A stretch of 32,163 nucleotides of DNA from Candidatus Altiarchaeota archaeon (GCA_034659295.1 JAYEGX010000074.1:1-32163), one strand, 5' to 3'; shown: positions 17,606 through 32,163, counted from the stretch's first letter. The notes: generated by a model not told the origin, from the sequence alone. Program-made: numbers and translations.

Positions 17606-17611
17606 CCGGTT

Positions 17612-18349
17612 TTAGGGCTCCAGTACCTTAATACCTAAGCCTTCAACAAACTCCAGGGGGTGTATTACCTCACTGTGCCCGGTGGCGCGCATTTTCTTGA
17701 TGACCAGATTCCTGCCTTTTACAGGTCCTGTAAGCTCGTATCTCAGGTTTATAACCCCATCGGTGAGGGATTCGGGTAGGGTATCCATCTCAAAGCTTCT
17801 GACATCGCCAGACTCTGAGATGACAATAGATGTAACTCCCAGCTTCTTTAACTTCGTGAGAAAGGTTTCGGTCAGAATCCTTGAGGCCACCAGCGGATGC
17901 TTTGGATCCGGGATGATTGCATCCACATCCCTGATAGCGGAGTATGCGATGCTAACGTCCTGCCACGGTATTGGATGGAAGGATATGTGCGATAGAGAGT
18001 CTATGACCACCCTATCATACCCTCCTTTTTTGATGTCATTAAGTATCTTGGAGATATCGAATTGTGAGGTATCAACCTCCAGCATCTCCAGGAGTCCCTC
18101 AGCCATTTTAGACCTGAGGTTCCAGCCGAACATCTCCGCCTGATCCAGTAGTTCATTGGCCCCCTGTAGCAGGGAGACGTATATCCCCTTTTGACCCTCC
18201 ATGGCCCCGGTATACAGATACCCCAGGCCGAAAATTGATTTACCAGTACCAGGAGCCCCTGAAACAAGAATGGAATATCCCTTGGGGAAACCACCCCCAA
18301 TTAGTTCATCCAAGCCACTGATCCCTGTTTTTATCCGCTCCATTTCCAT
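17612..18349 (-). CDS. Single-domain KaiC-like/RAD55-family RecA-fold ATPase
   Basis: RIKTGISGLDELIGGGFP, Walker A GAPGTGKS, Walker B VVIDS, DGVI.L, LVIKKMRATGHS. Confidence 0.9.
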   Translation of the reverse strand: MEMERIKTGISGLDELIGGGFPKGYSILVSGAPGTGKSIFGLGYLYTGAMEGQKGIYVSLLQGANELLDQAEMFGWNLRSKMAEGLLEMLEVDTSQFDISKILNDIKKGGYDRVVIDSLSHISFHPIPWQDVSIAYSAIRDVDAIIPDPKHPLVASRILTETFLTKLKKLGVTSIVISESGDVRSFEMDTLPESLTDGVINLRYELTGPVKGRNLVIKKMRATGHSEVIHPLEFVEGLGIKVLEP

Positions 18350-18400
18350 TTTGTCTAGTATTATCTTAGGATTGATAGTGTATTAAATAAAAGGAGATGA

Positions 18401-19609
18401 TTATATAAAATCGGTAATCCTTTTCTGCCTTAATGCCTCGCTCCTTTTGATATAGTCTTTTACGGGGAGCCTGAGTCTTCCGGCAAGGTGCTTTAATGCA
18501 CCATCGAGTGTTTTGAAACAAACTGGTTTTTTCCCAAGCGCTGCTCTGACGTTCTCCCTGACCTCCCAGACACCTACGGGAACTACATACCCTTCAGAGA
18601 TTTCCCGAAACACTATAACACGGGCCTGCCTGCCTATCAGGTGTAGGAACTCGGTTACAGCAAACCTTGATGCATAATAGCCGCCTCCCTGCTTTTCTGC
18701 ATAGGTTGTTCTTCCGGTGAAGGGTTCGTTTTCCTGGATAATCGCCGGTTTTGAGGCGGATAGAGTCCATAGGGTCCTTGGCGCCCATGCCTCGAACTGC
18801 TCGAACTCCCAGCTTCCTGGAATCATAAGTATCTGGAAGTGGTTGTCAAGGTAGGTGTTGGAGTATAGCATGATGTCGTTAATTAAGGGATAAGTTTTTA
18901 TCTCCTTCATCTGTTCCTTGGAGATGATGTCGTCTACTGCCGTAATCGACCACCTTGTCGGAACAAGTCTTCTGTCATCCATGGAGCCTAATGCCCCTGA
19001 AGAAAAAATCTTGGTGAGGTAGTAGACGTCGAATTTGCGGCTGTAGAGGTCAACGAGGGATTCCCCTGCTCCAAGCTCGTCGGAAACAATCCTGTCAACT
19101 TTTTTCGGGATTTTTGGGTTCTCAGCAAGAGATAACCTCTCCAGCATACCTGATGGGCCCATTGGCTGATTAACTGACGAAAAAGATAGGTTGTAGGAGG
19201 GTGTTTTCTTGAACTTGTTTTCCACATAAACCGGTTTTGAAGCCAACGCTATCTCCTGCACCTCCTCAGTGAACGGGTTTTTGTCTTTTACCATGTGCCG
19301 CTTTTTCGACCTCAAAAGAAGGGATCGCATCTCCACTATATCATTCAGTGAGGAGCCGTACCATTTTTTGGGGTTGTCCAGTAAACCCGCCAGCTCATCG
19401 TCTAGGGAGGTCATCGGGCCCACGTAAACATTAGGGTAGCTGTGGTGTCCCACAAAAACAGAGGGTGATTTCCCGTAAACCAGATCAGATAGTTTCTCTT
19501 TTCTGGGCTGCTGGATTCTTATCTTTTGGAGCAGCGGGCAAAAGCTTTCCCCGCACAGAAGCCGTGCTCCTTTACAGATAAGGCAAAGTTCTCTGGAAAG
19601 GGGCTTCAT
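18401..19609 (-). CDS. nreA: Nre-family PCNA-interacting DNA repair protein
   Basis: N-terminal CLICKG..LCG..CP, RRLVPTRWSITAVDD, YVVPVGVWEVRENVR and a C-terminal PIP box QKRITDFI. Confidence 0.92.
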   Translation of the reverse strand: MKPLSRELCLICKGARLLCGESFCPLLQKIRIQQPRKEKLSDLVYGKSPSVFVGHHSYPNVYVGPMTSLDDELAGLLDNPKKWYGSSLNDIVEMRSLLLRSKKRHMVKDKNPFTEEVQEIALASKPVYVENKFKKTPSYNLSFSSVNQPMGPSGMLERLSLAENPKIPKKVDRIVSDELGAGESLVDLYSRKFDVYYLTKIFSSGALGSMDDRRLVPTRWSITAVDDIISKEQMKEIKTYPLINDIMLYSNTYLDNHFQILMIPGSWEFEQFEAWAPRTLWTLSASKPAIIQENEPFTGRTTYAEKQGGGYYASRFAVTEFLHLIGRQARVIVFREISEGYVVPVGVWEVRENVRAALGKKPVCFKTLDGALKHLAGRLRLPVKDYIKRSEALRQKRITDFI

Positions 19610-19611
19610 CT

Positions 19612-20811
19612 TTACAGTTTCTTGATTTCCTTAACCAGTAGGGGTAGTAGAACCGCCGGGTCGGTTACGAGCCCCAGGGCCTGGGTGGTGCCTCTATCCT
19701 GGAGGCGGGTTACTACATAGGGGTTTATGTCTATGGCCACGGTCTTGACCTTTGAGGGGAGCATGTTTCCCACGGCTATGCCGTGCAGCATTGTTGCGTA
19801 GATGATGCACATGTCTATGTCTGCTATGTATTCCCGCATAATGTCTTGTGCCTCCATCACGTTGGTTACGGTATCCGGCAGTGGGCCGTCATCTCTAAGA
19901 GATCCTCCTATCACGTAGGGTATGTTTTTTTTAACGCACTCATAGATTACGCCACCAGTTAATACGCCATCTTCTACCGCCTTCTTTATTCCACCAGCCT
20001 TCCACATCTCGTTGATTGCCATCAGATGGCTTTTGTATCCTTTCCTCAGCACCCTGCCGGTGTTTTTGTCCATCCCCAGTGTTGTGCCATAAAGCTGTTT
20101 CTCGATGTCCATAGTGGCGAACCCGTTGCCTGTGAAAATCGCCTGCACATAGCCCATCCTTATGAGCTCGGCTAAGGCCTCGTCTGCACCGGTATGCGCT
20201 ATTGCAGTACCCACGACGTGGGCTATTTTTTTACCTGAATCCCTTAACTTCTTCATCTCCCGGGCCAGATCCGGTATGTAGGCGTTAATGGGCTTCTCGG
20301 GTGAAACCTGCGAGGACATGAAACCGAAGATGTCTTCTGGTTCCCGGGATCTCTGGGGTGCTTCGACCTTGATGCCGTCCAATCCCACCACAACATTTTC
20401 TCCCTTGGTTACCAGACCCTGCCTCCTGCAAAAAGCCCGACCCCCTTGCACTACTATGACAGCGTCCATCTCCAGATCCTCTACCTGAACCCAGTTTCCG
20501 TTCATGTAAACGTGTGTTGGATGATTTGTTGTGCCATAGAAGTCATCAGGCAATACGGAATCCCCTAGAGCCTTCAGGGTCTTGACTTCTTTTTTTGGTA
20601 GCAGTGCCCCTAGAATCTCCAGCTCATTGAATAATTCCCTGCTGCCTTCAACCTTCATCACACAGTGGCTTTCATCTGTTTTTGTTTTTCCCACGTCAAG
20701 CTGGAGTATCTCGAAGTTTCCTTCCATTTCCATTACGGTATCAAGGACCTTGGGCAGGGTTAGTGAATCGATGATATGCCCCCTCAACTCTATGGTTTCC
20801 GTGTATTTCAT
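19612..20811 (-). CDS. TIGR00300-family protein (LOR/SDH-like; archaeal ornithine cyclodeaminase-type)
   Basis: IELRGHIIDSLTL, PDDFYGTTNHPT, FGFMSSQVSPEKP, GSLRDDGPLPD, MLHGIAVGNMLP, KLQDRG-like end. Confidence 0.88.
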   Translation of the reverse strand: MKYTETIELRGHIIDSLTLPKVLDTVMEMEGNFEILQLDVGKTKTDESHCVMKVEGSRELFNELEILGALLPKKEVKTLKALGDSVLPDDFYGTTNHPTHVYMNGNWVQVEDLEMDAVIVVQGGRAFCRRQGLVTKGENVVVGLDGIKVEAPQRSREPEDIFGFMSSQVSPEKPINAYIPDLAREMKKLRDSGKKIAHVVGTAIAHTGADEALAELIRMGYVQAIFTGNGFATMDIEKQLYGTTLGMDKNTGRVLRKGYKSHLMAINEMWKAGGIKKAVEDGVLTGGVIYECVKKNIPYVIGGSLRDDGPLPDTVTNVMEAQDIMREYIADIDMCIIYATMLHGIAVGNMLPSKVKTVAIDINPYVVTRLQDRGTTQALGLVTDPAVLLPLLVKEIKKL

Positions 20812-20829
20812 TTTTTATCTCCTTCGTTT

Positions 20830-21147
20830 TTAGACATATACCATACCCTCCTTGATATCTTCAGCAACTTCTTTGATTCTTATGCCCTTCACACCTTCAG
20901 GGGTTAGGAGGTCTATTTTTTTATCTAAGAGTTTCTCGATGTAGTCTGCAAAATCTATGAATTTAAGGCCTATCGGTTTTTCAAACTCTATCAGGAGGTC
21001 TATGTCACTGTCTTCCCTCTCGGTTCCTCTTGCAAGAGATCCGAATATGGCTATCTTTTTCACCCCATAGGTGGAGCTTGGATAGGGGAGTTCGTTTCTT
21101 AATACCTCAATCGCTTCATCTTTGCTCATTTTAATTTCGTCTCCCAT
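20830..21147 (-). CDS. Minimal nucleotidyltransferase (MNT), no adjacent HEPN partner
   Basis: YGVKKIAIFGSLARG...SDIDLLIEF (GSx10DxD), LLDKKIDL. Confidence 0.9.
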   Translation of the reverse strand: MGDEIKMSKDEAIEVLRNELPYPSSTYGVKKIAIFGSLARGTEREDSDIDLLIEFEKPIGLKFIDFADYIEKLLDKKIDLLTPEGVKGIRIKEVAEDIKEGMVYV

Positions 21148-21161
21148 ATGAATTTAGTAGT

Positions 21162-22478
21162 CTATTTTAATATTTCAGCTATCACCAGTGCTTTTTTTAC
21201 AACCTCAACCGCATCATATCCCAGTATTCTTATCATGGCTTCTTTTCCTATGCCGCCTGAGTCATATATTACGTCAGGGAACTCTCCCACAGCCTCTATC
21301 GCCTTGTGAGTGCCCCACTCCATGGTTCCCGTGGAGGGAGGCTCTTGTATTCTATCGAATGAGGCGGTTACGTAATGCTCCCGGCAGGCGTCTATTATTT
21401 CGGTGCTGTGTTTGATGTTCAATGCAGCTCTCTTTTCTTTATCGTATTCCATCGCCTTCAGCACCACCCGGGCCATGTGCAACGAGCCCCTGAATTTCAC
21501 CAACCCAGCCGGGACTACTTGTCTTTCTGCCTTAACCAGTCTCCCGCTTAAACCAGCTGTCTCACCCAGCTTCCTGGCTCCGGGTAATGCCATCGCGATA
21601 TTGCAGCCGACCTCCGGGATAAGCCTGTAAGCTTGTGGGTTTGCTGTGAAGTTGTTGATTGCTTGCTCGATATTATCCAGAACCCTGTTTTTCCGTTCAT
21701 CCTCCAGTGTCTCGCTTAGTTTAATGTTCCCCGTGTCCAGTACGTACGAACCCTGTCCAACCTTCAGGTATTTTTCTATTGCGGAATCCATGTATTTCTT
21801 GGCTTCAGCCACGGCCTCCGGAACGCTTTTTTCCCTAGCAAGGGAGGCTGCTATTGCGGCAGAAAAAGCACACCCCGCCCCGTGCAGCTTTATATCTTTT
21901 CTGCCGATCCTGCTTTTGTAGAGGATTATTTCTCCATTATAGCTTAACACGTCCACCGCATCCAGGTGCCCGCCTTTAACTACTGTGTTGCCCAGTTCAT
22001 CTGCTGCCTTCTGCATATCATTTATTGTTTTTATTTTTATGCCGGAGAGTGTTTCTGCCTCATAGATGTTGGGTGTGCTGATTCTTGCAATAGATATCAG
22101 CTTCCTCATCTCGTTTATTGCTTTCTCATCTAGGAGCACATCTCCTGAGGTGGCTACCATGACGGGATCCACCACCAAATTTTTTATGTTGTATTCCCTT
22201 ATTTTTTTCTTGACCAGGTTTATTACTTCCGCGTTAGCTAGCATCCCTGTCTTAGCTGCTTTAACGTGCAGGTCTTGCATTACTGCATCTATTTGTTTCT
22301 CTATCAGGTCCAGTGGCAGAATCAGGTAGTCGCTGACTTTTCGGGTGTTTTGGGCTGTTACTGCGGTGATTGCTGTTGCGCCGTGCACCCTGAAGGAGTT
22401 GAAGGTTTTAAGGTCTTGCTGGATTCCCGCCCCACCTGAGGGGTCGGAGCCTGCGATGGTCAGGGCTGTTAATTCCAT
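21162..22478 (-). CDS. thiDN: Bifunctional HMP/HMP-P kinase - thiamine-phosphate synthase (ThiD-ThiN)
   Basis: ALTIAGSDPSGGAGIQQDLKT, VVDPVMVATSG, HGAGCAFSAA; ThiN part LIPEVGCNIA, HMARVVL, IYDSGGIGKEAMI. Confidence 0.93.
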   Translation of the reverse strand: MELTALTIAGSDPSGGAGIQQDLKTFNSFRVHGATAITAVTAQNTRKVSDYLILPLDLIEKQIDAVMQDLHVKAAKTGMLANAEVINLVKKKIREYNIKNLVVDPVMVATSGDVLLDEKAINEMRKLISIARISTPNIYEAETLSGIKIKTINDMQKAADELGNTVVKGGHLDAVDVLSYNGEIILYKSRIGRKDIKLHGAGCAFSAAIAASLAREKSVPEAVAEAKKYMDSAIEKYLKVGQGSYVLDTGNIKLSETLEDERKNRVLDNIEQAINNFTANPQAYRLIPEVGCNIAMALPGARKLGETAGLSGRLVKAERQVVPAGLVKFRGSLHMARVVLKAMEYDKEKRAALNIKHSTEIIDACREHYVTASFDRIQEPPSTGTMEWGTHKAIEAVGEFPDVIYDSGGIGKEAMIRILGYDAVEVVKKALVIAEILK

Positions 22479-22561: not shown

Positions 22562-22615
22562 GGGTCTTCCCATTCCCTTAGCTGGGTTTCGCCTTTTTTC
22601 TCTCCAGCCTGTTCC

Positions 22616-23027
22616 TCACTCCAGATGCTTTGATACGTATTTTGCGAATTCTTCGAAGTCGTCTAGTCGGGTTTGGAGGTTGTTGTATAGTTCATCTACG
22701 TCGATTTTTGAGTAGGCGTGGACCAGGATGTTCCTGAATCCTGCTGCTGGGGCGAATTTTTCTGCGAATTCTTCGGGTATTATGTTGTTTTCGCCTAGGA
22801 TTTGTATCACCTCCCTGTAGCTTTCGGGTTTTCCAAGACCTTCTTTGGAGATGATTATTTCGCCGACGTCGAGGATGCATTCCAGGGAGACCTGCATGTA
22901 TCTCTCTGTCGCTGCTTTGAGTGTTTTATTGTCTCGTATGTCTTCTATGGGGGTGTTACTGGTATTCCCTGAGTATTTTCATGTATTCGCTGAGCTGCTC
23001 TAGTTTTGATATTATTTCTTTTTTCAT
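22616..23027 (-). pseudogene. hepT: HEPN/DUF86 toxin (HepT-like) interrupted by an in-frame TAA
   Basis: ATG at 23027 overlaps the antitoxin stop (ATGA). Translation MKKEIISKLEQLSEYMKILREYQ*HPIEDIRDNKTLKAATERYMQVSLE..., with TAA at 22958-22956. The downstream frame keeps GFRNILVHAY (RX4HXY). Confidence 0.85.
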
Positions 23028-23461
23028 GTTAGTCCTCTCTGGATTATCCGGTTTATTGCTTTTCTTGTGTGTTTTTCGTTGTAGTATTTTCTGTCCAGGT
23101 ATTGTGATAGGGTTTTGGCTTCGAACATCACTCTTTTTGTTTCGTGGGTTGAGGTTATTAGTCTCCCGGATTTCAGTGCATTGTATCGTAGGGTGGTTGG
23201 GGCGTTGTTCATTATGATGACGTCTATGTTGTCTGTTCCCATGATCTGGGTTAGGTTGTTTATTAGTTTGAGTTTTATTTCTGTTTTTTTTTCTTTGGTT
23301 AGTGATTCGTCGAGGTAGAAGGCAAAGTCTATGTCGCTGAGTTTTGTTTCTCTTCCTTCGGCTATTGAACCGAATATGTAGGCTGATATAACGCCTTCTG
23401 TGTTGTTGATGCTTTTTTTCAGTTGTTTTTCTCTGGACTGTAGTTTTTCGCTGAGGTTCAT
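23024..23461 (-). CDS. mntA: MntA-type nucleotidyltransferase antitoxin
   Basis: AYIFGSIAEG..SDIDFA, IDVIIMNNAP..LRYNAL; directly upstream of the HEPN gene. Confidence 0.9.
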   Translation of the reverse strand: MNLSEKLQSREKQLKKSINNTEGVISAYIFGSIAEGRETKLSDIDFAFYLDESLTKEKKTEIKLKLINNLTQIMGTDNIDVIIMNNAPTTLRYNALKSGRLITSTHETKRVMFEAKTLSQYLDRKYYNEKHTRKAINRIIQRGLT

Positions 23462-23603
23462 GATGTAATAGATTAGTACTTAGGGATTAAAGAACTTTGT
23501 TTTATTCATCCCCTGCACCTAACCAGAAAGGGAGGTAAGCGCTCATGGTTTCCTCCCTTAAACCCTGTGACCTGGCTATTCCAGCAGCCACCTCCACAGG
23601 GGC

Positions 23604-23623
23604 TGGAATCTGATATCCTCTCC
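23604..23623 (+). repeat. Imperfect 20-bp direct repeat, copy 2
   Basis: TGGAATCTGATATCCTCTCC; the two copies bracket the mntA-hepT module. Confidence 0.5.
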
Positions 23624-23674
23624 CATTATTGTAAAAAGGGCAGGTAGAGGCAGGTCAGTTCATTATGTATTGTT

Positions 23675-23740
23675 GTGAGCGATTAGTGAGCGATTAGTGA
23701 GCGATTAGTGAGCGATTAGTGAGCGATTAGTGAGCGATTA
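23675..23740. repeat. Perfect tandem repeat (GTGAGCGATTA) x6
   Basis: Six exact 11-bp copies read directly from the sequence; stop codons arise in all frames. Confidence 0.97.
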
Positions 23741-23798
23741 ATGGGTACATAAATCCAGGAAATAGGGATATAACATCTGATCTCACTTCAAAAAACAT

Positions 23799-23960
23799 AT
23801 GATATCTGAAATCAACTCCAAGCGTTTTAACGAGATTATGGAATGGTGCAGGGACTGGGATCTCCCGGAACCGGATTCCGAATTCACCGGGACAAGCCTG
23901 ATTGTCACTCTCTGGAAATCCAAACTCATAGGACAGCTTGGGGTTAAATGAACGAGAAAG
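23799..23960 (+). pseudogene. Relic resembling the C-terminal part of an AlbA_2/HATPase_c_4 (RecG-C-like) ATP-binding protein
   Basis: RFNEIMEWCRDWDLPEPDSEFTGTSLIVTLWKSKL, then GLNERE in a shifted frame. Resembles the recalled 'LPEP.FE.....VTL....LGLNERQ' segment of that family. Confidence 0.5.
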
Positions 23961-24104
23961 TTTAAAATCCGTACTATTATGTTATAACACTTTTATAAAA
24001 AGCTTTCTATTAGTATTCTTCAACCTCAGCCAGCAGCTGATTGCAACAGCCTCAAGTCGTGGTCTTGCATTTGCGTCATGTTTTGATGTTGTGTTGTCGG
24101 ATGG

Positions 24105-24493
24105 TTAAATTTTCTGGGCTCGAGACTTCAGGATCTCTTCAAGAACCTCTCCTGGATTTATTTTTTTGTGGGGTTGTACGTTCTCTTCTTCTTGGATGTG
24201 GGTGTGGTGTGGGTATGTATCCAGTTCTGGGGTGGTGGTTTGCGTTATCCCATTCTCTGGATCAGGTTACCTGATGAATTCTGCCAGTGGTATCTGTATT
24301 TTTCCACAACCACGGTGTTCTTTCTAAGCAGTATATACTCAAATAGGTGTAGTTCGGAGCCATCATCTAGTTTTATGATAGCGTTTATGTGGCCTTTATC
24401 CTCGCTTCCAAGAAAGGTTTTAGCCTCGGTTGATGTTGTAAGCAGGGATTCTGAGATGAGCGATACAGTCTGTTGGAGGTATTTTTCAATCAC
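24105..24493 (-). pseudogene. DUF6516/TumE-like toxin broken by two +1 frameshifts
   Basis: The ORF ends ..YRYHWQNSSGNLIQR-MG*. Removing one A (~24253) gives WDNANHH; removing one C (~24231) gives PELDTYPHHTHIQEEENVQPHKKINPGEVLEEILKSRAQKI* ending at 24105. This restores the family's WDNA.HH...PHH.H motif. Confidence 0.8.
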
Positions 24494-24791
24494 TTACAGC
24501 ACCTTGGAGTATCTTATACCTCTGCTCCCGGTCTTTGTGGTATTGTATGTAAGCGAACCATTCGAAGTAGTCTTGTTTGTCACCTAATTTTCCTTTCTCG
24601 AACTCGGAGTAAAATTTTTTAGAGGATTTATCATACTTGGATTCGAATTCCTTCAGTTTTTTCTTGTATCCCTTGGTCATCATCTTGCTCACCCGTAATT
24701 CTCGTTTAATGGCGTCTTTCACTGTTTTAGCCACCATGTTCGGGGGATATTTGGTTTTGAATTTGAGGTTCACAAACTCCATTGCTTCCAC
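24486..24791 (-). CDS. Putative antitoxin (TumA-like) upstream of the DUF6516 gene
   Basis: LKEFESKYDKSSKKFYSEFEKGKLGDKQDYFEW pattern; 8-bp overlap with the toxin GTG start. Confidence 0.7.
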   Translation of the reverse strand: MEAMEFVNLKFKTKYPPNMVAKTVKDAIKRELRVSKMMTKGYKKKLKEFESKYDKSSKKFYSEFEKGKLGDKQDYFEWFAYIQYHKDREQRYKILQGAVSD

Positions 24792-24858
24792 CGGTTGTTG
24801 ATTAGATCACTGGATTAAAAAATCAATGCAACAACCTCACCGAACAAGATATAAGCTC

Positions 24859-25860
24859 TCACATCAGCTTCTTCTCGACGTAGTCCACCAGCTCTTCCTC
24901 GAATCCCTGTGACCTGACCACCGTCTTGAGTTTCTCAGGGTCCTCACCATCCCTAAGCTGTTTCTCTATCCACGTAATCAGCTTCATTCTCTTCCTTTGT
25001 TTCTCTTCAGCCTGTTTATTATCTTCACGTTTTTTGTAGACGAAAAACGCAGTCGCCAGTACAACAGCTGTCGTAAGCAGGTAAAGAAGCAGGTTTCCGT
25101 CAGAGACCGCACCTCCTCCAACCGTGGTCGCTGGGGAAGTTGATGTTGAAGCGACTGTGTCTGGTGTTGTTGTGGATGGGATGAGAGTTGATGTAGTAAT
25201 TGTAGTTGTTTCAGCAATGCAGTCCGGGTCGTCGGTGACTGGGCAGTTGGGGTCGCAGACACCGTCTTCTTTTTTGTCGCAGTAGGCATCAGATGAACCG
25301 CTTTCGCAGTCCATGGGGCATGTTTTATGGTTCTCTTTTGGGTCACATATGCTATTTCCGCATGAAGTCTTTATTTCACCGCCCACACAATCCGGGTCGT
25401 TTTGGTTCAGGCAATAGGGTTCGCATAAACCGTCAGACACACATATTTTTTCAGGTATGTTTATTTCCTGAATTATTTGGTTGTTGTGGTAGAATCTTAT
25501 CCACTCCATGCTCGGATATGATGGTGTTGTCAGCATCCACCTGCTTTCGTTGAGCACTATTTTTTCTACGCCAACGTATGTTATGAACCCAACGGTGAGG
25601 TTTCCGGCATACAATACTTTTTCTTTGGAACATATCTCCACCCGGTATCTGCCTTCTTGGCTGGAGTATAGGTTGGTTTTTCCGTAGCCGGTGGATAATC
25701 CACCTACCTGAACTGAGCCGTTGCGGTAGAATGTTGTGTCAAAGGATAGGGTTCGGTAGTCTGCCGAAGCAGGTAGAGAAAGTATCGCTAGAGCTAGTAG
25801 AAAGACTCTGGCTGAGGTTTTCATGTTTTTACCTGATTTATTGTTTTTTTCTTCCAGCAT
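24859..25860 (-). CDS. Membrane-anchored Cys-rich surface protein
   Basis: Signal peptide (probable start 25824, MKTSARVFLLALAILSLPASA), beta-rich domain, CGNSICDPKENHKTCPMDC and DGVCDPNC..DPDC modules, Thr/Ser linker, one TM followed by YKKR and a cytoplasmic tail. Confidence 0.85.
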   Translation of the reverse strand: MLEEKNNKSGKNMKTSARVFLLALAILSLPASADYRTLSFDTTFYRNGSVQVGGLSTGYGKTNLYSSQEGRYRVEICSKEKVLYAGNLTVGFITYVGVEKIVLNESRWMLTTPSYPSMEWIRFYHNNQIIQEINIPEKICVSDGLCEPYCLNQNDPDCVGGEIKTSCGNSICDPKENHKTCPMDCESGSSDAYCDKKEDGVCDPNCPVTDDPDCIAETTTITTSTLIPSTTTPDTVASTSTSPATTVGGGAVSDGNLLLYLLTTAVVLATAFFVYKKREDNKQAEEKQRKRMKLITWIEKQLRDGEDPEKLKTVVRSQGFEEELVDYVEKKLM

Positions 25861-25869
25861 TTTTCTTCC

Positions 25870-28110
25870 TTAACTGTAGTAGTTACATTCGTCTTGTCTA
25901 TATGATGTATACGGGTCATCGGGGCACCCGTCCAAGTGGGGTTTTAGCGCAAAATCCTTAAGATGACCGTAGGCTGCGGGCCCGAAACAGGAAATGGGAG
26001 TGTAGTATGACATGATGAAGTCTTTTCTAATATCTTCATCTTCTGGTGGAATAACTCCTCCCTCACTTTTGCTGCAGTCAGGGCAGTTAGGATAACTGGG
26101 GCAGGCATCACAGTTTACTCCTCCTCCGTTAACGTGCGCGAAACCTAGAGTGTGTCCTAATTCATGCGTCGGGACCAATAGATCAGAAATTTCCCAGTCT
26201 CTTTTAACAGCCGCTCCTATAGAAGGGATGCCTCCACATTTACCTGTCGAATCATGATCGTTATGTGAGCTTATGGCAAGGAATTTATCATAGATTACTC
26301 CTTTATCACTTAAACATTCGTATGCTTTTTCAATGCAATCATTCAGATCCTTTGCACATTTTTCTGGTCCGCAGTCGCTTGGTTGAAGAATCACCGGAGC
26401 TACTTTTGCTGTACAGATACGGAAAGGAGTCTTGTCTCTGAATTGAGTTATAACATCATTTGCTTTAGAGTTGAATACGCCTGCTTCACTTTCCTCCCAG
26501 CCCACTGGGACTACTGCCAGCTTAAAGTCTCCTCCTGGTTCAGGAGTGCATCGTTTCACACACCCATATGAAACGCTAGCATCATGGTATCCTCCCGCAT
26601 AATCGCATGTGTTTTCATCACTATCTGATGTAGTAGTGGATTGCTCTATCACGTAGATATCTGTACCTACAATAGAACATACAGTATTTTCATACAATCT
26701 TATATCATGAGAAGAAGATTCTAGTTTAATTCCATCACAATGGTTTTTCTTTACAATGTTGTGTGTAACTGCATCTCCCGAAGAACCATGGATAACAATC
26801 CCCTCCCCTTCGTTTTCGTTCACGGTGTTGTCTGTCAATTCGTTAGCATTTGAGGAAGAAGAGATATAAATCCCACTTTTATTGTTTTCATTCACTGTGT
26901 TGTCTGTCAATTTATTACCATTTGAGGAAAAGAAGATCCAAACCCCATATACTTCGTTTTCGTTCACTGTGTTTTTTGTCAACACATTATTGTTTGAGGA
27001 AGAGATAACAATCCCACATTGCTTGTTTTTGTTCACTGTGTTACCTGTCAAAACATTGTTCTCTGAGGTAGAGATAATAATCCCATCCCCCTCGTTTTCG
27101 TTCACGGTGTTGTCTTTTAATACGTTATTGTTTGAGGTGTCACTGAGAAAAACACCTTTCCAAAATTCCTTAATAGTGCAGTCTTGGATGGTATTACCTG
27201 TTCCACCGATCATATATATCCCAGAGTCGCTACCTCTTCCGTCTATGAAATGTCCTCCGCAATCAAAGGTCACACCATCATTCTCCCAGGTAATGCAGAT
27301 CCCCGGGTAGTCTGATATATCGTCCATCAACAATATAGTATCCCCCTCCTTAGCGTTCTTGATCGCTTCGGTGCAGCTCTCGCAGCTGTCGCATGTGAGC
27401 CCGGCAGGACTGCCGTATTCTGCAAGGACGACATTATCTCCCCACTTAAACTTCACACAGTGCGGTCCCGTATCTTCCGGAGGTAGTTTATCGAGGCTGG
27501 TGCATTTCACCGTTTTAGACTTGCCTCCCTCAACAGTTAAACTGAGTTCACCCTCATTGAACTCGACGCAGGAGGTGGTTATCTCCGTGAAATCAGACCC
27601 CGGTGGCTCCGGCTCACATCCCGTGTCTTTGGCTATATAGAACTCCACCAGATGGGTTTCTGCCGTTCCCCCCTTATTTGTTATACTACCTATAAGCCTC
27701 CGGATGCATGAGCCGCCCACAGGACCTCCGCAGCACCCGCAGTCGAAGCCCCGCTCCATGCACCTATATTCATCAAGACTATCAATACCTAGCGGGTCCC
27801 TACAGCAGTAGGTTCCGGTGTCGGCAGTGCAGGTTTTGGCACCGCATGAGCCTTCCACACCAACATCCTCGCATCCGCCACTGCATTTAAAACAGTATCC
27901 CCCAGATATGCTATGACCTCCACAGGTCCCATAATCAAAACCCTTAGCAACACACATATCCCCGTGGCCTGCAGCCTTGCAGGTATACGGCAGACCATCA
28001 CAGGACTCAGCAGGACATCCATCCTCACAAAGCCAACCCCAGGCCTGAGCAGATACCGGATTACTGCCGATAAATAATACCGCAACCATCAACCAAAATG
28101 TTTTTTTCAT
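25870..28110 (-). CDS. Secreted multidomain zinc metalloprotease (Cys-rich / Ig-like / parallel beta-helix / metzincin)
   Basis: Signal peptide ending VSA|QA; about seven ~23-aa N.L..NTV..N...GI beta-helix repeats; HELGHTLGFAH (HExxHxxGxxH) and Met-turn FIMSY. Confidence 0.87.
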   Translation of the reverse strand: MKKTFWLMVAVLFIGSNPVSAQAWGWLCEDGCPAESCDGLPYTCKAAGHGDMCVAKGFDYGTCGGHSISGGYCFKCSGGCEDVGVEGSCGAKTCTADTGTYCCRDPLGIDSLDEYRCMERGFDCGCCGGPVGGSCIRRLIGSITNKGGTAETHLVEFYIAKDTGCEPEPPGSDFTEITTSCVEFNEGELSLTVEGGKSKTVKCTSLDKLPPEDTGPHCVKFKWGDNVVLAEYGSPAGLTCDSCESCTEAIKNAKEGDTILLMDDISDYPGICITWENDGVTFDCGGHFIDGRGSDSGIYMIGGTGNTIQDCTIKEFWKGVFLSDTSNNNVLKDNTVNENEGDGIIISTSENNVLTGNTVNKNKQCGIVISSSNNNVLTKNTVNENEVYGVWIFFSSNGNKLTDNTVNENNKSGIYISSSSNANELTDNTVNENEGEGIVIHGSSGDAVTHNIVKKNHCDGIKLESSSHDIRLYENTVCSIVGTDIYVIEQSTTTSDSDENTCDYAGGYHDASVSYGCVKRCTPEPGGDFKLAVVPVGWEESEAGVFNSKANDVITQFRDKTPFRICTAKVAPVILQPSDCGPEKCAKDLNDCIEKAYECLSDKGVIYDKFLAISSHNDHDSTGKCGGIPSIGAAVKRDWEISDLLVPTHELGHTLGFAHVNGGGVNCDACPSYPNCPDCSKSEGGVIPPEDEDIRKDFIMSYYTPISCFGPAAYGHLKDFALKPHLDGCPDDPYTSYRQDECNYYS

Positions 28111-28151
28111 TCACATACCCTATAATCAATATTAATCATTGAACTTGAATA

Positions 28152-29987
28152 TCATGGCTCCAACCACTCCACCCTGAGATTCATCAGAATGTCACCGCCT
28201 CCAGTGCATTCTCCTTTGCAGCAGTAGCCTGACTCGCAGGTTCCGGAGACTGTGCTGCAGTCCTCGTATGAGCTGCAGGGTTTTTCCATGCATTTACCGC
28301 CCACATCCACGCAGTCAGGTCTGTCACCGATGAGACCCGGCTCCCAGAGCAGGTCAACCAACATAACAGCTACGCCTATGATAATCAACCCCGCGATCAC
28401 GTAAATCAAACACCTCTTGGATTTCTCCTTTGTCTCCACATCATCTGCTAGGATGAACCTGATGCCGCATACGGCGAAAATCAGTGCAGCTAATATGATG
28501 GACGCCAGCGTTATAGCCTTGTATAAGTCCACCACGCCGATGTTGAATCTGCACTTGCTCTTGCAGACCTGCTTGCACCTTGCTACCGCGTCCTCGCTTC
28601 CCTTGAAGTCATTATCCGCTGGGTCACAGAAGGTATCACAGCAATCAACGCAGTCTTCATCTGCTAGCCCGCAGGGTGCCAGCCCCCCGCAGACGCCGCC
28701 ACACTTCGCGAGACAGTTCCCCTCACCTAGGCTAATTTCCTCAATCTCAACAGGACCTTCCTTCGTGTTGCAGGTGCAGGTGCAGGATACGACTTTGTCA
28801 CCATCACCGTCACCATCACCATCTCCGTCACCATCACCGTCTCCGTCACCATCACCATCACCGTCTCCGTCACCATCACCGTCACCATCCCCGTCACCGT
28901 CACCATCCCCGTCACCATCACCGTCTCCGTCACCACCCCCAGAGCAAGCTCCCATACAACAAGAAAAACCTGAATCGCAGACTCCGTCTGCAATTGGCTT
29001 GCAATCAGTATATTCGCTGCAGTCTTGTTCCATGCACTTACCGCCAACTTTATCACAGGCATCCGAATCACCTAAATGCTTATTTAGAAAACCAAGAAGA
29101 GCAACCATATCTTTATTATTAGGCACACCCTTATAATCTGTTTCAAAAAACCAGCCGAAATTATGATCATAGCCTGTTGTCTCCCTATATTCAAAATACA
29201 CGCCCGCACCCTCAAGCTTATCACGTAATTCCCTGCTCTGCTGTATGGGAACCACATAATCCCCCTTATCATGTATTATAAAAAAGGGGGGATCACCACC
29301 ATCAACATAAGTCACAGCACTATACTTCAATGCCTTCTGATTGCAAGGAGGGTTAGACTCATCGGGCTTACAACCCAAAAGCATATCCAAAAGATTATCA
29401 TGTTCAGGAGGCATACCCTGACCATAGCAACCCCAATAAATACAATCCCAGCAACCCAACCGATAATCCCTACAATACAGAGACAGGGAAAATAGATTCG
29501 ACAAACCAGACATATCAACAACCGCATCAACCGAACCACTGCCCTCAGTCGTCCCATAAAAAGAAGACAGATGAGCTCCCGCCGAACCCCCGATAACAGC
29601 AAACTCCTTAGTATAACCATATTTCTCATATTGCTCTGGACGCTTAAGCCATCTCACAGCGCTGCTAACATCCTCAGTCGGCGCAGGAAACTCCTCCTTA
29701 AGCCGGTAATTAATCGAAGCATAAGCAAAAGAAAAACCATAAGGATTAAGCTCCGGATCATTAAGAAAACCACTATAGTAAGCCCAATGATCTGACTTAT
29801 CCCCACTGATAAAACCACCTCCATGAATGAAAATAACAAGCGGCTTAGGATCCCCCTCAGGAATAGAAAGATCAAGCTTCTGATATCTATCACTCCCATA
29901 CGGCAAATCCTTATGCACAACGGCAGCATCCACAGAATTAACAACCAGCAACAAAACCAAAACAAACACAAACCTCCAATCAACCAT
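28152..29987 (-). CDS. Secreted alpha/beta-hydrolase (HSL-like esterase) fused to Cys-rich modules, a (GD)23 spacer and a TrbC/VirB2-like pilin hairpin
   Basis: Probable start 29987 (MVDWRFVFVLVLLLVVNSVDA); HGGGF, GGSAG, HDKGD and GYDH triad motifs; two TMs separated by ADDVETKEKSKR. Confidence 0.85.
   Translation of the reverse strand: MVDWRFVFVLVLLLVVNSVDAAVVHKDLPYGSDRYQKLDLSIPEGDPKPLVIFIHGGGFISGDKSDHWAYYSGFLNDPELNPYGFSFAYASINYRLKEEFPAPTEDVSSAVRWLKRPEQYEKYGYTKEFAVIGGSAGAHLSSFYGTTEGSGSVDAVVDMSGLSNLFSLSLYCRDYRLGCWDCIYWGCYGQGMPPEHDNLLDMLLGCKPDESNPPCNQKALKYSAVTYVDGGDPPFFIIHDKGDYVVPIQQSRELRDKLEGAGVYFEYRETTGYDHNFGWFFETDYKGVPNNKDMVALLGFLNKHLGDSDACDKVGGKCMEQDCSEYTDCKPIADGVCDSGFSCCMGACSGGGDGDGDGDGDGDGDGDGDGDGDGDGDGDGDGDGDGDGDGDGDGDGDKVVSCTCTCNTKEGPVEIEEISLGEGNCLAKCGGVCGGLAPCGLADEDCVDCCDTFCDPADNDFKGSEDAVARCKQVCKSKCRFNIGVVDLYKAITLASIILAALIFAVCGIRFILADDVETKEKSKRCLIYVIAGLIIIGVAVMLVDLLWEPGLIGDRPDCVDVGGKCMEKPCSSYEDCSTVSGTCESGYCCKGECTGGGDILMNLRVEWLEP
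28797..28934 (-). repeat. Coding low-complexity repeat (Gly-Asp)23
   Basis: 138 nt = 46 codons, with mixed GGT/GGA/GGG and GAT/GAC codons. Confidence 0.95.
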
Positions 29988-30094
29988 CTTTTCTTTTCTC
30001 TCCCACATACACGACACCCCACCGTAACATTATTAATATCTTAGGTTATATATCTGTCCCTGTGATTCCATCACCTTTCTGCGTGCATGTTTCT

Positions 30095-32161
30095 TCAGGG
30101 GCAGGCTACCTCCCTCTGGCCGCTCCACCTGTCCACGTAATCGCATATTGTGTTCCCGGAGGCGTCGTTGAGTTTCACGTGGATAATGGGTCCAGTGCAC
30201 AAAAGCTCATAGAGGGAGTAGGTGCCTATGCCCACCTCCTTGCTCCACTCCATCTCGCATACGAGATAGTCGGCGGTCGATATAATCAACTCTATCACCC
30301 AATAGCATACCATGGCTCCGGCTGCAATAACAATCAAGGCAGGAAGATTCATGGTACAAATCGCCGCCAGTGTTGCAAGCAGGAAGGGCAGTATAAACGC
30401 CAACGTCACCACCAAACCCCCAATGTGCATGTAAAATCCTATCTTCGTAAGGTAGATGTCTCTATTCTCGTATCCTGATGCTATGAGTCTATTCCCTGCC
30501 TCCATAAAGAGTATGCCCAATACAAGCCCGGCTATTGAACCGTATCTGGCGTATTTACTCCGCCCGATATCCCTCAGTTGTTTAATCTCCTCACCCCTCA
30601 CCTTACGCCCATACCCCGAGTAATCGCTGTCATGCTGCCTGTCCAGCTTATCCGCGATCTCCATGTTCTTCTCTATTGCCTCAACCCACCTCCCCTCTGA
30701 CTCCACTATCTCCTTAGTTACCTCCAGCTTACCTGTATCAACAAGGTCCTTGTATTTAGTAGCTGCCTCCCCTCCCTCAGACATGACCTCAATGTAGTCG
30801 TCATAGGATACTCTGTTAAGCTTTTCAAGAAGTTCGGTGAAATGAGTTATCCTGTTTCTCGCAACCTCCTCAGCTGACATGCCCATATAGTCTATAATCT
30901 CCGGAGCCATTCTCAGCTCCCGGATATAATCTCTTGTAGCCTCTATTATCGACCTGACATTTGCTTTATCTTCTGGGGTGATTAGGATACTGTCACCGTC
31001 TAACTCACGCAACATATCCTTCATTTTATCATCCAGTTCCACAATCAGATGCACATCCACTTTCTTGAGATAATACTGTTTCTCAAGCTCTCCGATAATC
31101 TCTTTGTTGATTCTTTCATAGTATTCCACGCGACGGTTTATGACCTTTACCTTATGCTGTACCCCGAGCAGTGAAACAAATTCCGTGATTTTAGCTCTGA
31201 TCAGAGGTAGATAGTGGTCGTAGGTTCCTTTCATGTTATCCGGGTGATTTATGTATTCCGTGATTATGTCCGACGTCATTTTATGATCGTTCATTAGATT
31301 GGCTGCTTGAGCCAGCCTCTTACATGCCTTACCGTATTCTCCCCGTCCCGCATAAAATTCAGCTCCAAGCGACCCGTCGATGATCTCCCCCAGCCCGGTC
31401 CCCATAACCTCCGGCGTGATCTTCAGTTCCCCGAACTGGTCTTGTATATCAGCTAACAGAGCAGAGGGTCCGATAAAAATGTTTTTGGTCATGAGTATGC
31501 GATTCCGCGCACCCAACCTCTCAACAATCTCCCTGAATGTGCCGTCAAACATCAGTTTATCAGGATAAATATCTCTCCCAGCAAACAATGTATCCCTAAG
31601 CTCAAATAATCTGATTGTCACCATATTCAGGATACTCTCCCGCATATTCCGCGGTAAATCCTCTGAAAAGATAACGAAATAATCAAGGTCACTGATGACG
31701 CGATTGAAGTTTATTGACGCCTTCTCCCCCTCCAGCGTGTACCCGTAGGATGTACTCCCGCCGTATACTATAGAAAACTCTCCCTTGAAGCTTGGATCCT
31801 CCGCCTTGAGTTCCGCTAGTATGTCGTTCACAATCCCCTCCGTTGCCTCAATTAGGTTACCTCTTAATTCCCCGTCGATTACCACATCAAGGCTTTCTTT
31901 TGTGAGAGGCTCCGAGGTCCTGTAGCAGCCGCCGCCAGTGCACATCGATGTAACACCCGGCACCGCAATCCGCCGCTGGAATTCACAGAATTTATTCACG
32001 GTCTCCAGGAGGAGACGATTAGCTTCCTCCGCAGGAAGCGCAAGCATTTCCTTAAGTAGGGGGCCGTTTTTTATGAGGTCGGTCTCAAGGGAATCCGCGA
32101 TAAACTTTTTTTCGTCATCAGTGAACTCCCCCAGGTTATTCCTAATTGCCTCAAGCGCGCC
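30095..32161 (-). CDS. Large protein (5'-truncated by the window) with a Pol-beta-like nucleotidyltransferase motif, a helical region and three C-terminal hydrophobic helices
   Basis: The frame stays open from 32047 to the window edge (GALEAIRNNLGEF...GPLLKE|MLALP). IVYGGS...SDLDYFVIF motif; hydrophobic SIAGLVLGILF, IGGLVVTLAFILPFLLATLAAI and LPALIVIAAGAMVCYWVIELII; four-Cys tail. Confidence 0.8.
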   Translation of the reverse strand, partial: GALEAIRNNLGEFTDDEKKFIADSLETDLIKNGPLLKEMLALPAEEANRLLLETVNKFCEFQRRIAVPGVTSMCTGGGCYRTSEPLTKESLDVVIDGELRGNLIEATEGIVNDILAELKAEDPSFKGEFSIVYGGSTSYGYTLEGEKASINFNRVISDLDYFVIFSEDLPRNMRESILNMVTIRLFELRDTLFAGRDIYPDKLMFDGTFREIVERLGARNRILMTKNIFIGPSALLADIQDQFGELKITPEVMGTGLGEIIDGSLGAEFYAGRGEYGKACKRLAQAANLMNDHKMTSDIITEYINHPDNMKGTYDHYLPLIRAKITEFVSLLGVQHKVKVINRRVEYYERINKEIIGELEKQYYLKKVDVHLIVELDDKMKDMLRELDGDSILITPEDKANVRSIIEATRDYIRELRMAPEIIDYMGMSAEEVARNRITHFTELLEKLNRVSYDDYIEVMSEGGEAATKYKDLVDTGKLEVTKEIVESEGRWVEAIEKNMEIADKLDRQHDSDYSGYGRKVRGEEIKQLRDIGRSKYARYGSIAGLVLGILFMEAGNRLIASGYENRDIYLTKIGFYMHIGGLVVTLAFILPFLLATLAAICTMNLPALIVIAAGAMVCYWVIELIISTADYLVCEMEWSKEVGIGTYSLYELLCTGPIIHVKLNDASGNTICDYVDRWSGQREVACP

Positions 32162-32163
32162 CT

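Follow-up and report, generated by a model that had tools for sequence, protein, structure and literature searches.

The window is the whole stretch of DNA analysed, 32,163 nt. It is the entire contig C74 of a metagenome-assembled genome (MAG) of a Candidatus Altiarchaeota archaeon (GCA_034659295.1, JAYEGX010000074.1; MAG G000: 1.27 Mb, 106 contigs, 69% complete). Its interval 24859-32163 holds four consecutive open reading frames (ORFs), g1 to g4, all on the minus strand. With a probability of about 0.55, these four genes are the distal half of a lineage-restricted surface cluster of at least seven genes, whose products form a modular display of hydrolases on pilin-type anchors. Two ways of holding enzymes at the cell surface are predicted: fusion to a pilin-type hairpin (g3) and association with a separate partner of the g1 family (g2 with g1). 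By comparison with related loci, g4 is assigned to a conserved core, g3 to a swappable slot, and the C-terminal part of g2 together with g1 to a cassette specific to this genome. The cluster is best filed among the surface systems derived from pilins of type IV secretion systems (T4SS); a role in pilus display, predation, defence or biofilms may be proposed for it.

Esterase, hairpin, protease and putative partner

The product of g3 comprises, in this order, a signal peptide, a carbohydrate-type serine esterase, a Cys knot, a (GD)23 spacer, a Cys-rich preamble, a VirB2-type hairpin and a second Cys knot (coordinates in Table 1). By its motifs and alignments, the protein is assigned as a fusion of an intact carbohydrate esterase (acetyl-xylan type) with a hairpin of the VirB2/TrbC type. 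The esterase has an oxyanion motif HGGG at residue 65 and a nucleophile motif GGSAG at residue 143. It aligns to the acetyl-xylan/carbohydrate esterases 6xyc (E 3.5e-15) and 6tkx (E ~4e-15) and also to the GH43-CE enzyme 6mly; when the Ser, Asp and His positions are matched to 6xyc, the Ser-Asp-His triad is intact. Residues 498-557 match T4SS_pilin (PF18895) with 36-39.9 bits, above the cut-off of 26.6. Hydropathy gives two helices (501-519 and 536-554) joined by the short charged loop ADDVETKEKSKR, with a signal peptide at the N-terminus, and the hairpin was aligned with 14 other hairpins of the same genome. TrbC (PF04956) scores 17 bits with g3 and 27.3 bits with its G014 orthologue (cut-off 27.9).

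VirB2-type pilins are small structural subunits of conjugation and effector pili. With 611-621 aa including the esterase, two knots and the spacer, g3 exceeds the size of such a subunit (mature ~70-140 aa); the canonical small pilin of the genome, 141 aa, is encoded on contig C41, outside the cluster. The spacer comprises 23 GD repeats in G000 versus 3 in the closest relatives, G012 and L051, and may be a recombination-prone or length-variable linker. The same knot + GD cassette also heads the poly-pilin gene of contig C75 (63% identity).

The product of g2 has a signal peptide and no transmembrane segment, and is predicted to be secreted and anchor-less. Its zinc-binding motif, HELGHTLGFAH, is followed after about 40 residues by a Met-turn-like IMSYY, resembling at the motif level the serralysin or astacin type; the C-terminal domain also matches the snake-venom adamalysin 4j4m in PDB (E 5e-4). 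No curated Pfam peptidase family was matched above its cut-off (best, Reprolysin_5, 19.4 bits versus 27; M43, M10 and M66 weaker). Assignment of this domain as a divergent metzincin is supported at the motif level.

The product of g1 is predicted to be a type-I membrane protein: signal peptide, beta-rich ectodomain of ~105 aa, three DPDC-type Cys modules (three copies of the pattern DG.C.P.C....DPDC), Ser/Thr linker, one transmembrane helix and a 58-aa cytoplasmic tail. It matched no protein family. A paralogue of 258 aa is encoded on contig C55 (65759-66535; E 1e-36).

Loci have either both the protease part of g2 and g1, or neither. Collinearity with G012 and L051 breaks at 27340 and returns at 23540; the segment specific to G000 contains the beta-helix and protease part of g2, g1 and a TumE-like pair. 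In G012 and L051, g2 consists only of the N-domain and a short beta-helix (381 aa), and both the protease domain and g1 are absent. Elsewhere in the order, the metzincin domain is clear only in G008, where (contig C59) the gene of a 588-aa HExxH protein precedes a 225-aa gene that carries the order's sole clear match to the g1 ectodomain (32%).

Seven or eight dyads in which a hydrolase gene is followed by a g1-like gene were found, with a protease domain detectable in six. The partner ectodomain tracks the protease class: the g1 type is found beside metzincins only and another type with M64-like domains, while the common part of the partners of papain-like proteases is limited to DPDC and the transmembrane helix. 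Such tracking is the pattern expected of a specific binder, and g1 could be, by analogy, either a tethered inhibitor of the anchor-less enzyme or a dock for it. A pilin-hairpin match is found no more than 10 kb away from about 8 of the order's 22 tail-bearing g1-family genes (hand count; chance expectation at most ~10%), a figure that is a lower bound because many contigs are short. In G008, dyads are repeated back to back (two papain-family C1 enzymes, two metzincin-like proteins), which points to a protease-partner system of general use in this archaeal family.

An earlier note on this DNA had described four consecutive minus-strand genes with gaps of about 10-110 bp. The ORFs lie at 24859-32161 and the gaps are 9, 41 and 77 bp, the last being 107 bp with the later start of g3, which is judged likely because of the starts of orthologues. 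All four products had been called Cys-rich: this holds for g2 and g3 (6.3% each, 98th percentile of the 832 ORFs of at least 200 aa in the same genome) and for g1 (3.9%, 95th percentile; genome median 1.1%), but g4, with 1.5% (64th percentile), is not Cys-rich. Three catalytic domains had been proposed, and the serine esterase of g3 and the zinc protease of g2 were recovered, whereas the nucleotidyltransferase (NTase) of g4 was not: neither Pfam nor PDB gave a match and Foldseek none at E <=0.001. The pilin-like hairpin announced for one gene is that of g3, and the decaying toxin-antitoxin (TA) patch described beside the genes was found, with a damaged HepT gene and a TumE-like ORF covering half its profile.

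Conserved core and exchangeable slot

Because the window is a whole contig, g4 is cut at its end. The rest of g4 is found at the end of contig C30, as an open frame of 738 aa. On the full-length orthologue of G012 (1371 aa), this frame covers residues 1-674 and the g4 fragment of the window residues 684-1371. C74 is thus continued at its right end by C30, with ~9 codons absent at the junction. No exact nucleotide overlap between C30 and C74 was found, and the join rests on protein alignment to orthologues. Further genes of C30 encode a small membrane protein (small, 207 aa), a pilA-type protein (562 aa: Cys-rich preamble, PF18895 hairpin and large Cys-rich C-terminal domain) and the tail of another pilin-cargo protein. 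The overlaps are 11 nt between pilA and small and 8 nt between small and the giant gene; pilA, small and giant are translationally coupled. In full, the cluster encodes, in this order, a pilin-cargo protein, the small membrane protein, the giant (~1435 aa), the esterase-pilin, the protease and its putative partner.

Within the same genome, no paralogues of g4, small or g2 were found. PADLOC defence models gave no match for g1, g2, g3, giant, small or pilA, and word-based homologue searches with g4, the g3 module and the g2 protease domain returned the query alone or one close relative.

Most of the assemblies compared are fragmented MAGs. Wherever the order is readable, small directly precedes giant (G012, G013, G014, G025, G026, L046, L047/48, L049/50, L051), and pilA-small-giant synteny was found in G012, G013, G014, G025, G026, L046, L049/L052 and L051. 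The three genes are linked across genera despite protein identities of only 25-45%, and pilin-hairpin genes lie beside giant in at least 5 of the 7 lineages. In a different genus (L049/L052), one contiguous cluster comprises genes for a g1-like protein, pilA, small, giant, a pilin, a pilin with an M64-like domain, a g1-like protein, a poly-pilin and a PKD-pilin, then housekeeping genes; it unites genes that in G000 are divided between two loci, C30+C74 and C55. The border of the cluster is formed by pyrG in G014 and G011 and by housekeeping genes in L052.

In the sister genus g10 (L038 in G026:C1 and L039 in G025:C41), the triad is directly followed by aglB/STT3, the gene of the N-glycosylation oligosaccharyltransferase. 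The small protein of these two loci has an N-terminal cytoplasmic motif, GEDPE, that is the same as the C-terminal motif of g1. A neighbourhood of thiD/thiN, an ArgZ-like 399-aa gene, nre, a KaiC-like ATPase gene and trkH is common to all giant-bearing lineages (L047, L048, L051 and 16085-22478 of the window); the cluster is therefore at a fixed chromosomal site and not on an obvious mobile element.

The gene after giant changes its cargo and keeps its anchor. The cargo is a BD-FAE esterase in G000, G012 and L051; in G013 it is made up of DUF5060, an apiosidase-like glycosidase, Flg_new_2, a collagen-binding-like domain and InlB-type repeats, and in G014 of a 12%-Cys domain. In L049, a bare pilin comes after giant, and after it a pilin with an M64-like domain. 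None of these genes has lost PF18895 or the g3-type module, and the preamble and hairpin module is 82%, 66%, 56% and 40% identical to that of g3 in G012, G013, G011 and G014, respectively. Between G000 and G013, DNA homology extends from 32163 to 30060 (85%), is lost, and is back only at 28836-28339 (80%); the swapped cassette therefore runs from the gene start to the preamble.

These comparisons bear on several expectations of the earlier note. The cargo swapping it anticipated at syntenic loci was observed after giant, with sharp DNA breakpoints. Homologues scattered independently, which would have spoken against a common function, were not what was seen, since small always precedes giant and hairpin genes accompany it in most lineages. 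The additional pilin-hairpin genes expected upstream were found, on C30 and at syntenic loci, but no VirB4 or TadA ATPase was detected within the 7-9-gene cluster in any locus read. Small immunity-like genes had also been expected: the g1 family, which recurs beside protease genes and inside pilin clusters, fits this idea. The proposed modular pilin-associated enzyme display is upheld as to conserved linkage and cargo swapping, but the unit is larger than four genes, has a fixed core and includes no ATPase.

Chance neighbourhood in a variable island, with no co-function, was already disfavoured and is scarcely credible. It would account for the absence of a g1 orthologue at this position in the closest relatives, for the varying length of g2 between strains and for the decaying TA patch; it does not account for conserved order, overlapping starts, module-level replacement of cargo at a fixed slot, or a protease domain and g1 that are jointly present or absent in a dyad recurring elsewhere.

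Nutrient-scavenging exoenzymes are an unlikely explanation, though one with some substance. The hairpin would be a plain two-helix anchor, the enzymes would digest environmental polymers for uptake, giant and small would be unrelated neighbours, and clustering would reflect a shared variable region for secreted proteins. The cargo is indeed typical of polymer degradation (acetyl-xylan-type esterase, apiosidase-like glycosidase, papain-like and metzincin proteases), the cluster contains neither an ATPase nor another machine gene, the C-terminal part of g2 and g1 are strain-specific, and the adjacent MNT/HepT block was apparently recently exchanged (see below). Unrelated neighbours are nevertheless hard to reconcile with the translational overlap of pilA, small and giant and their linkage across genera, and the slot after giant always encodes a hairpin protein in the genus labelled g1 (not the gene) and in L049. 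Scavenging also leaves unexplained why the anchor is of pilin type and why it has expanded to 27 copies, including poly-pilin ORFs.

Giant protein, other pilin genes and possible mechanism

The g4 family is an orphan: it gave no Pfam, NCBIfam or PDB sequence match and comprises 7 real clusters among 1.84 billion representative proteins. It is present in 7 of the 49 genomes of the order, in two genera (2 of the 10 genera of family f1). Two apparent relatives, P0005 and P0007 (3733 and 2415 aa; 21-24 matched stretches), were discarded as spurious, being repeat proteins that match one short g4 stretch.

Over 13 copies of the 245-aa module of g4, with identity down to 21%, the GS motif is invariant and the DxD motif nearly so. 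An AlphaFold2 model built on the alignment has a predicted local distance difference test (pLDDT) of 85 and a predicted template modelling score of 0.81. Below the Foldseek threshold already given, weak matches to NTase folds were obtained: MNT 7ae2_B (E 0.58, TM-scores 0.27/0.40), OAS1 (E 1.1), ANT(4') (3.0) and CutA (4.4). A PDB profile search of the module for NTases gave none. GS and DxD are separated by 21 residues versus 9-13 in the signature hG[GS] x9-13 Dh[DE]h, and a beta-hairpin replaces the usual helix. With such weak fold matches and such a spacing, the NTase reading of the modelled module is possible but unproven, its chances being roughly one in three.

The model of the whole window fragment of g4 has a pLDDT of 63 and yielded only helical-bundle noise in Foldseek. 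A VirB5-like nature was not supported: the best PDB match of the module profile, TrwJ (VirB5 of plasmid R388, 7o3v_A), concerns the helical part, with E 0.34 and no Foldseek support. The C-terminal membrane helices were rejected as a diverged pilin hairpin (hhalign probability 0.7%). In the N-terminal half of giant, GNAT matches of 15.9 and 13.9 bits (cut-off 20.7) fall at the same place in two orthologues that are 45% identical.

Eight Cys are conserved in the first ~230 residues of giant and four in the last ~60, and the ~1000-aa middle has less than 1% Cys. As the exported domains of this genome are all Cys-rich, ectodomains at both ends and a cytoplasmic middle are favoured; both ends of giant are probably outside and its middle inside the cell. 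The small protein is predicted to be bitopic and N-in (transmembrane helix 32-50, ectodomain ~155 aa), a topology compatible with a VirB8/PrgL-like component, whose ectodomain would be NTF2-like; a PDB profile search bearing on this VirB8-like reading gave nothing.

PF18895 has 27 matches in the G000 genome, 17 of them above the cut-off. Contig C41 (7546-11249) consecutively encodes the 141-aa pilin (PF18895, 52 bits), a PrgI-family protein (28.6 bits) and a 765-aa VirB4-like ATPase (P-loop_TraG 78.7, AAA_10 59.9, DUF87 43.4 bits), and is the only T4SS-type motor module detected in the genome with AAA_10. A machine of the type described for Patescibacteria (PMC12102498) is therefore present in the genome, outside the cluster. 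The frames on C75 and C106 look like poly-pilin 'polyproteins'. The proteins of C55 gave only sub-threshold hairpin matches against Pfam.

The following mechanism can be proposed. Sec signal peptides would export all products; the hairpin would be inserted with both ends outside, leaving the enzyme and the Cys knot outward-facing and disulfide-stabilised. The beta-rich ectodomain of g1 would bind g2, g1 being a membrane-tethered inhibitor that protects the producer, or a dock. The enzymes would act, by deacetylation or cleavage, on polysaccharide and protein, either in the matrix around the cell or on its neighbours. The middle of giant, with its GNAT-like and GS...DxD modules, may couple the cluster to the cytoplasm, and the pilin-PrgI-VirB4 module of C41 could extract hairpins into a pilus.

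This last step is central to another explanation, an enzyme-armed pilus, which is distinctly unlikely: the PrgI/VirB4 machine would pull the hairpins of g3, of pilA and of paralogous proteins out of the membrane and build them into a filament or onto it, the esterase, glycosidase and protease would attack neighbours, and the g1 family would confer self-immunity. The hairpins pass the PF18895 cut-off, TrbC/VirB2 is touched in G014 and in L049 (precomputed matches), and pilin, PrgI and a VirB4-like ATPase are together on C41. The giant cluster of L049/L052 is contiguous with the genes for an M64-like pilin, a poly-pilin and a PKD-pilin, which belong to the C55 locus in G000, and on C55 a murein amidase and lytic transglycosylase is followed by the g1 paralogue. 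Both pilin termini face outward in known conjugative pili, which in principle allows outward cargo. Steric packing of cargo in a helical filament is nevertheless doubtful, we know of no VirB2-type pilin with hundreds of residues of cargo, the cluster is devoid of a machine gene, and the hairpin matches of C55 are below threshold. A bolder and equally doubtful version would make the conjugative-pilin fold a universal plug-in: any secreted hydrolase could be recombined onto preamble and hairpin, and the PrgI/VirB4 machine would load the filament, giving an armed pilus that breaches or digests neighbours. The g1 family would then be cognate protease inhibitors, and giant a membrane platform whose GNAT-like and NTase-like modules modify or gate subunits.

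Self-directed maintenance of the envelope is very unlikely. The cell's own surface layers, matrix or appendages would be remodelled, with acetylated glycans trimmed and surface proteins processed, g1-like partners would check the proteases, and giant would act as a modifier from the cytoplasmic side. The aglB/STT3 neighbour of the triad in genus g10, Ser/Thr-rich linkers suggestive of glycosylated surface proteins, the GNAT-like and GS...DxD modules of giant and a fixed chromosomal site near thiD, the ArgZ-like gene and nre in several lineages would all be in keeping with it. Rapid cargo swapping and strain-specific cassettes, however, fit outward-directed or niche-specific functions better than housekeeping, and giant is absent from most genera of the family.

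The display of hydrolases on pilin-type anchors is itself opposed by several observations. To our knowledge, a hairpin with 400-900 aa of cargo is unlike any pilin known to polymerise, so the hairpin may be an anchor only. No VirB3, VirB6-like or other machine gene was found in the cluster or the syntenic loci. In the P0003 lineage (L047, L048), small and giant occur without an adjacent pilin gene, thiD being at that position. A sequence search of PDB with the g1 ectodomain was empty, showing no similarity to known inhibitors or to any solved protein, and the putative role of g1 is deduced from gene order and co-variation. Both enzymatic assignments in g4 (NTase and GNAT) are below threshold. 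The hydrophobic segment near residue 190 of giant, needed for the favoured topology, is weak in several homologues, which leaves this topology ambiguous. Absences are weak evidence because of the fragmentation of most assemblies.

Table 1. Features of the window and of related loci. Positions refer to the window unless another contig is named. G, genome; C, contig; L, locus.
Feature	Position	Strand	Basis or remark
g1	24859-25860	-	333 aa ORF
g1 cytoplasmic 'GEDPEKLK' tail	24862-25035	-	58 aa; contains WIEKQLRDGEDPEKLK
g1 transmembrane helix	25036-25092	-	single helix
g1 beta-rich ectodomain	25441-25761	-	~105 aa
g2	25870-28110	-	746 aa ORF
g2 metzincin domain	25873-26640	-	motif and adamalysin match
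g2 zinc-binding motif	26134-26166	-	residues 649-659; fits HExxHxxGxxH
g2 NosD-type beta-helix	26671-27306	-	NosD/beta-helix profile, ~100 bits
g2 Cys-rich and Ig-like N-domain	27340-28044	-	conserved in G012, L051, G014
g3	28152-30017	-	621 aa ORF; likely true start ATG at 29987
g3 C-terminal 8-Cys knot	28191-28313	-	58% identical to first knot
g3 VirB2/TrbC-type hairpin	28347-28526	-	PF18895; two hydrophobic helices and loop
g3 Cys-rich preamble (CTCTC...CxxCC...CxxxCxxxC)	28527-28796	-	precedes hairpin invariably in cargo-bearing subfamily
g3 (GD)23 flexible spacer	28797-28934	-	sequence repeat
g3 first Cys knot (8 Cys)	28938-29063	-	58% identical to second knot
g3 BD-FAE alpha/beta-hydrolase domain	29214-29873	-	PF20434, 116 bits
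g4	30095-32161 (contig end 32163)	-	688 aa, open at contig end; C-terminal part of ~1435 aa giant
g4 C-terminal small beta domain	30098-30256	-	four conserved Cys; presumed extracellular
g4 membrane region	30257-30520	-	amphipathic helix with conserved acidic residue, then two strongly hydrophobic helices; Lys/Arg-rich stretch before
g4 245-aa module (residues 56-300)	31262-31996	-	alpha/beta part then helical part; 1-4 copies per homologue
g4 module DLD (DxD) motif	31682-31690	-	nearly invariant
g4 module GS motif	31754-31759	-	invariant
g4 N-terminal 738 aa	C30 2841-5056		protein alignment to orthologues
G000-specific segment (versus G012, L051)	23540-27340		blastn breakpoints; relatives have 372 bp instead of 3.8 kb
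TA remnants overall	22612-24791	-	adjoins the four genes
HepT	22616-23030	-	stop at codon 24 and frameshift
MNT	23024-23461	-	intact
101-aa ORF and truncated TumE-like ORF	24245-24791	-	TumE-like ORF covers half its profile
Poly-pilin frame	C75 6540-10403	-	at least 10 tandem hairpins after Cys-rich N-domain and (GD)n spacer; runs off contig
Poly-pilin frame	C106 1-1774	-	5-6 hairpins then (TTTTGTV)n tail; runs off contig
Dyads, L057	G008:C59 14625-21783		two papain-family C1 proteases (107, 119 bits), each then g1-like type-I protein, and metzincin dyad
Dyad, L058	G008:C297 15120-20895		489-aa protein (PKD, Reprolysin-like) then 352-aa gene
Dyad	G000 C55		1296-aa protein (Amidase_3 211 bits, SLT 61 bits, faint M64 match) then 258-aa g1 paralogue
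Dyad	L049		755-aa protein (hairpin and M64-like domain) then 265-aa gene

Known systems and neighbouring features

Pilin arrays of the ultra-small bacteria of the candidate phyla radiation (CPR) are essential for an epibiotic lifestyle and poorly understood. The nearest described counterpart of the cluster is the chromosomal T4SS of Patescibacteria (CPR), with VirB2-like pilin arrays (Quinonero-Coronel et al. 2025, PMC12102498). PF18895 defines the pilins in both, a PrgI/VirB3-like protein and a VirB4 of monoderm (MPF-FATA) type are shared features, and the CPR arrays comprise 2-11 divergent pilin genes, in tandem or split by non-pilin genes (PMC12102498). These bacterial systems are mostly without relaxase and their function is unsettled, host interaction being suspected (PMC12102498). 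Here, in contrast, the organism is an archaeon, the hairpins follow a disulfide-rich preamble and bear large enzymes, poly-pilin ORFs occur, and the cluster associates an orphan giant and its small partner without VirB4. Enzyme-pilin fusions are not described in PMC12102498.

Multidomain VirB1-like hydrolases, which act on the cell wall in monoderm conjugation systems (PrgK of pCF10, TraG of pIP501; references 75-76 of PMC12102498), are likewise membrane-anchored, outward-facing and encoded alongside T4SS components. They differ in cutting the donor's own peptidoglycan, in having an ordinary transmembrane anchor and in being encoded inside a T4SS operon. Here the pilin fold itself is the anchor, the enzymes comprise an esterase, a glycosidase and proteases, and murein should be lacking in the archaeon. 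The Ced/Ted DNA-import systems (Beltran et al. 2023, PMC9905601, cited in PMC12102498) are likewise archaeal, chromosomal and T4SS-derived, with a VirB2-type pilin and a VirB4-like ATPase. They differ by small cargo-free pilins, by loci encoding the ATPase and CedA/TedA-type membrane proteins, and by their function, DNA import. No resemblance of g4, small or g1 to Ced/Ted proteins turned up, no dedicated comparison having been made.

Cellulosomes (cohesin-dockerin) also hold modular, swappable extracellular carbohydrate-active enzymes and proteases on dedicated surface anchors. However, cohesin and dockerin were not found in Pfam scans here, and attachment would be by direct fusion to the hairpin or through a separate type-I partner. 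Serralysin-type AprA/AprI and Inh provide the example of a secreted metzincin with an adjacent dedicated inhibitor, the Met-turn being of S-x-M-S-Y type. The likeness of g2/g1 to this pair lies in IMSYY, in a next gene that encodes a small beta-rich exported domain (~105 aa, the g1 ectodomain), and in joint gain and loss. The differences are the membrane tether, DPDC modules and cytoplasmic tail of g1, and a partner family that also accompanies papain-like proteases.

No description of this arrangement was found in the literature searched, and the papers found on T4SS or pilins of Altiarchaeota/DPANN included nothing on such archaeal fusions. The fold of VirB2-type pilins would here be a recombinable carrier of enzymes, with breakpoints visible between strains. 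Three testable hypotheses are offered: the esterase is anchored by its hairpin, the protease has a membrane partner of its own, and the giant membrane protein, an orphan, is linked to pilin genes. Should the hairpins enter a filament, enzymes would be delivered at a distance by a new route, and a handle would be gained on the interactions of uncultured archaea with their neighbours; if they are anchors only, it would still be a new principle of surface display, with modular parts of possible engineering use.

A T6 run lies ~40 nt past the end of g1. In the adjoining TA patch, the MNT/HepT block (22612-23540) is 93.8% identical to G012 and L051, versus 82-84% for the flanking genes, which suggests a recent exchange of the TA module.

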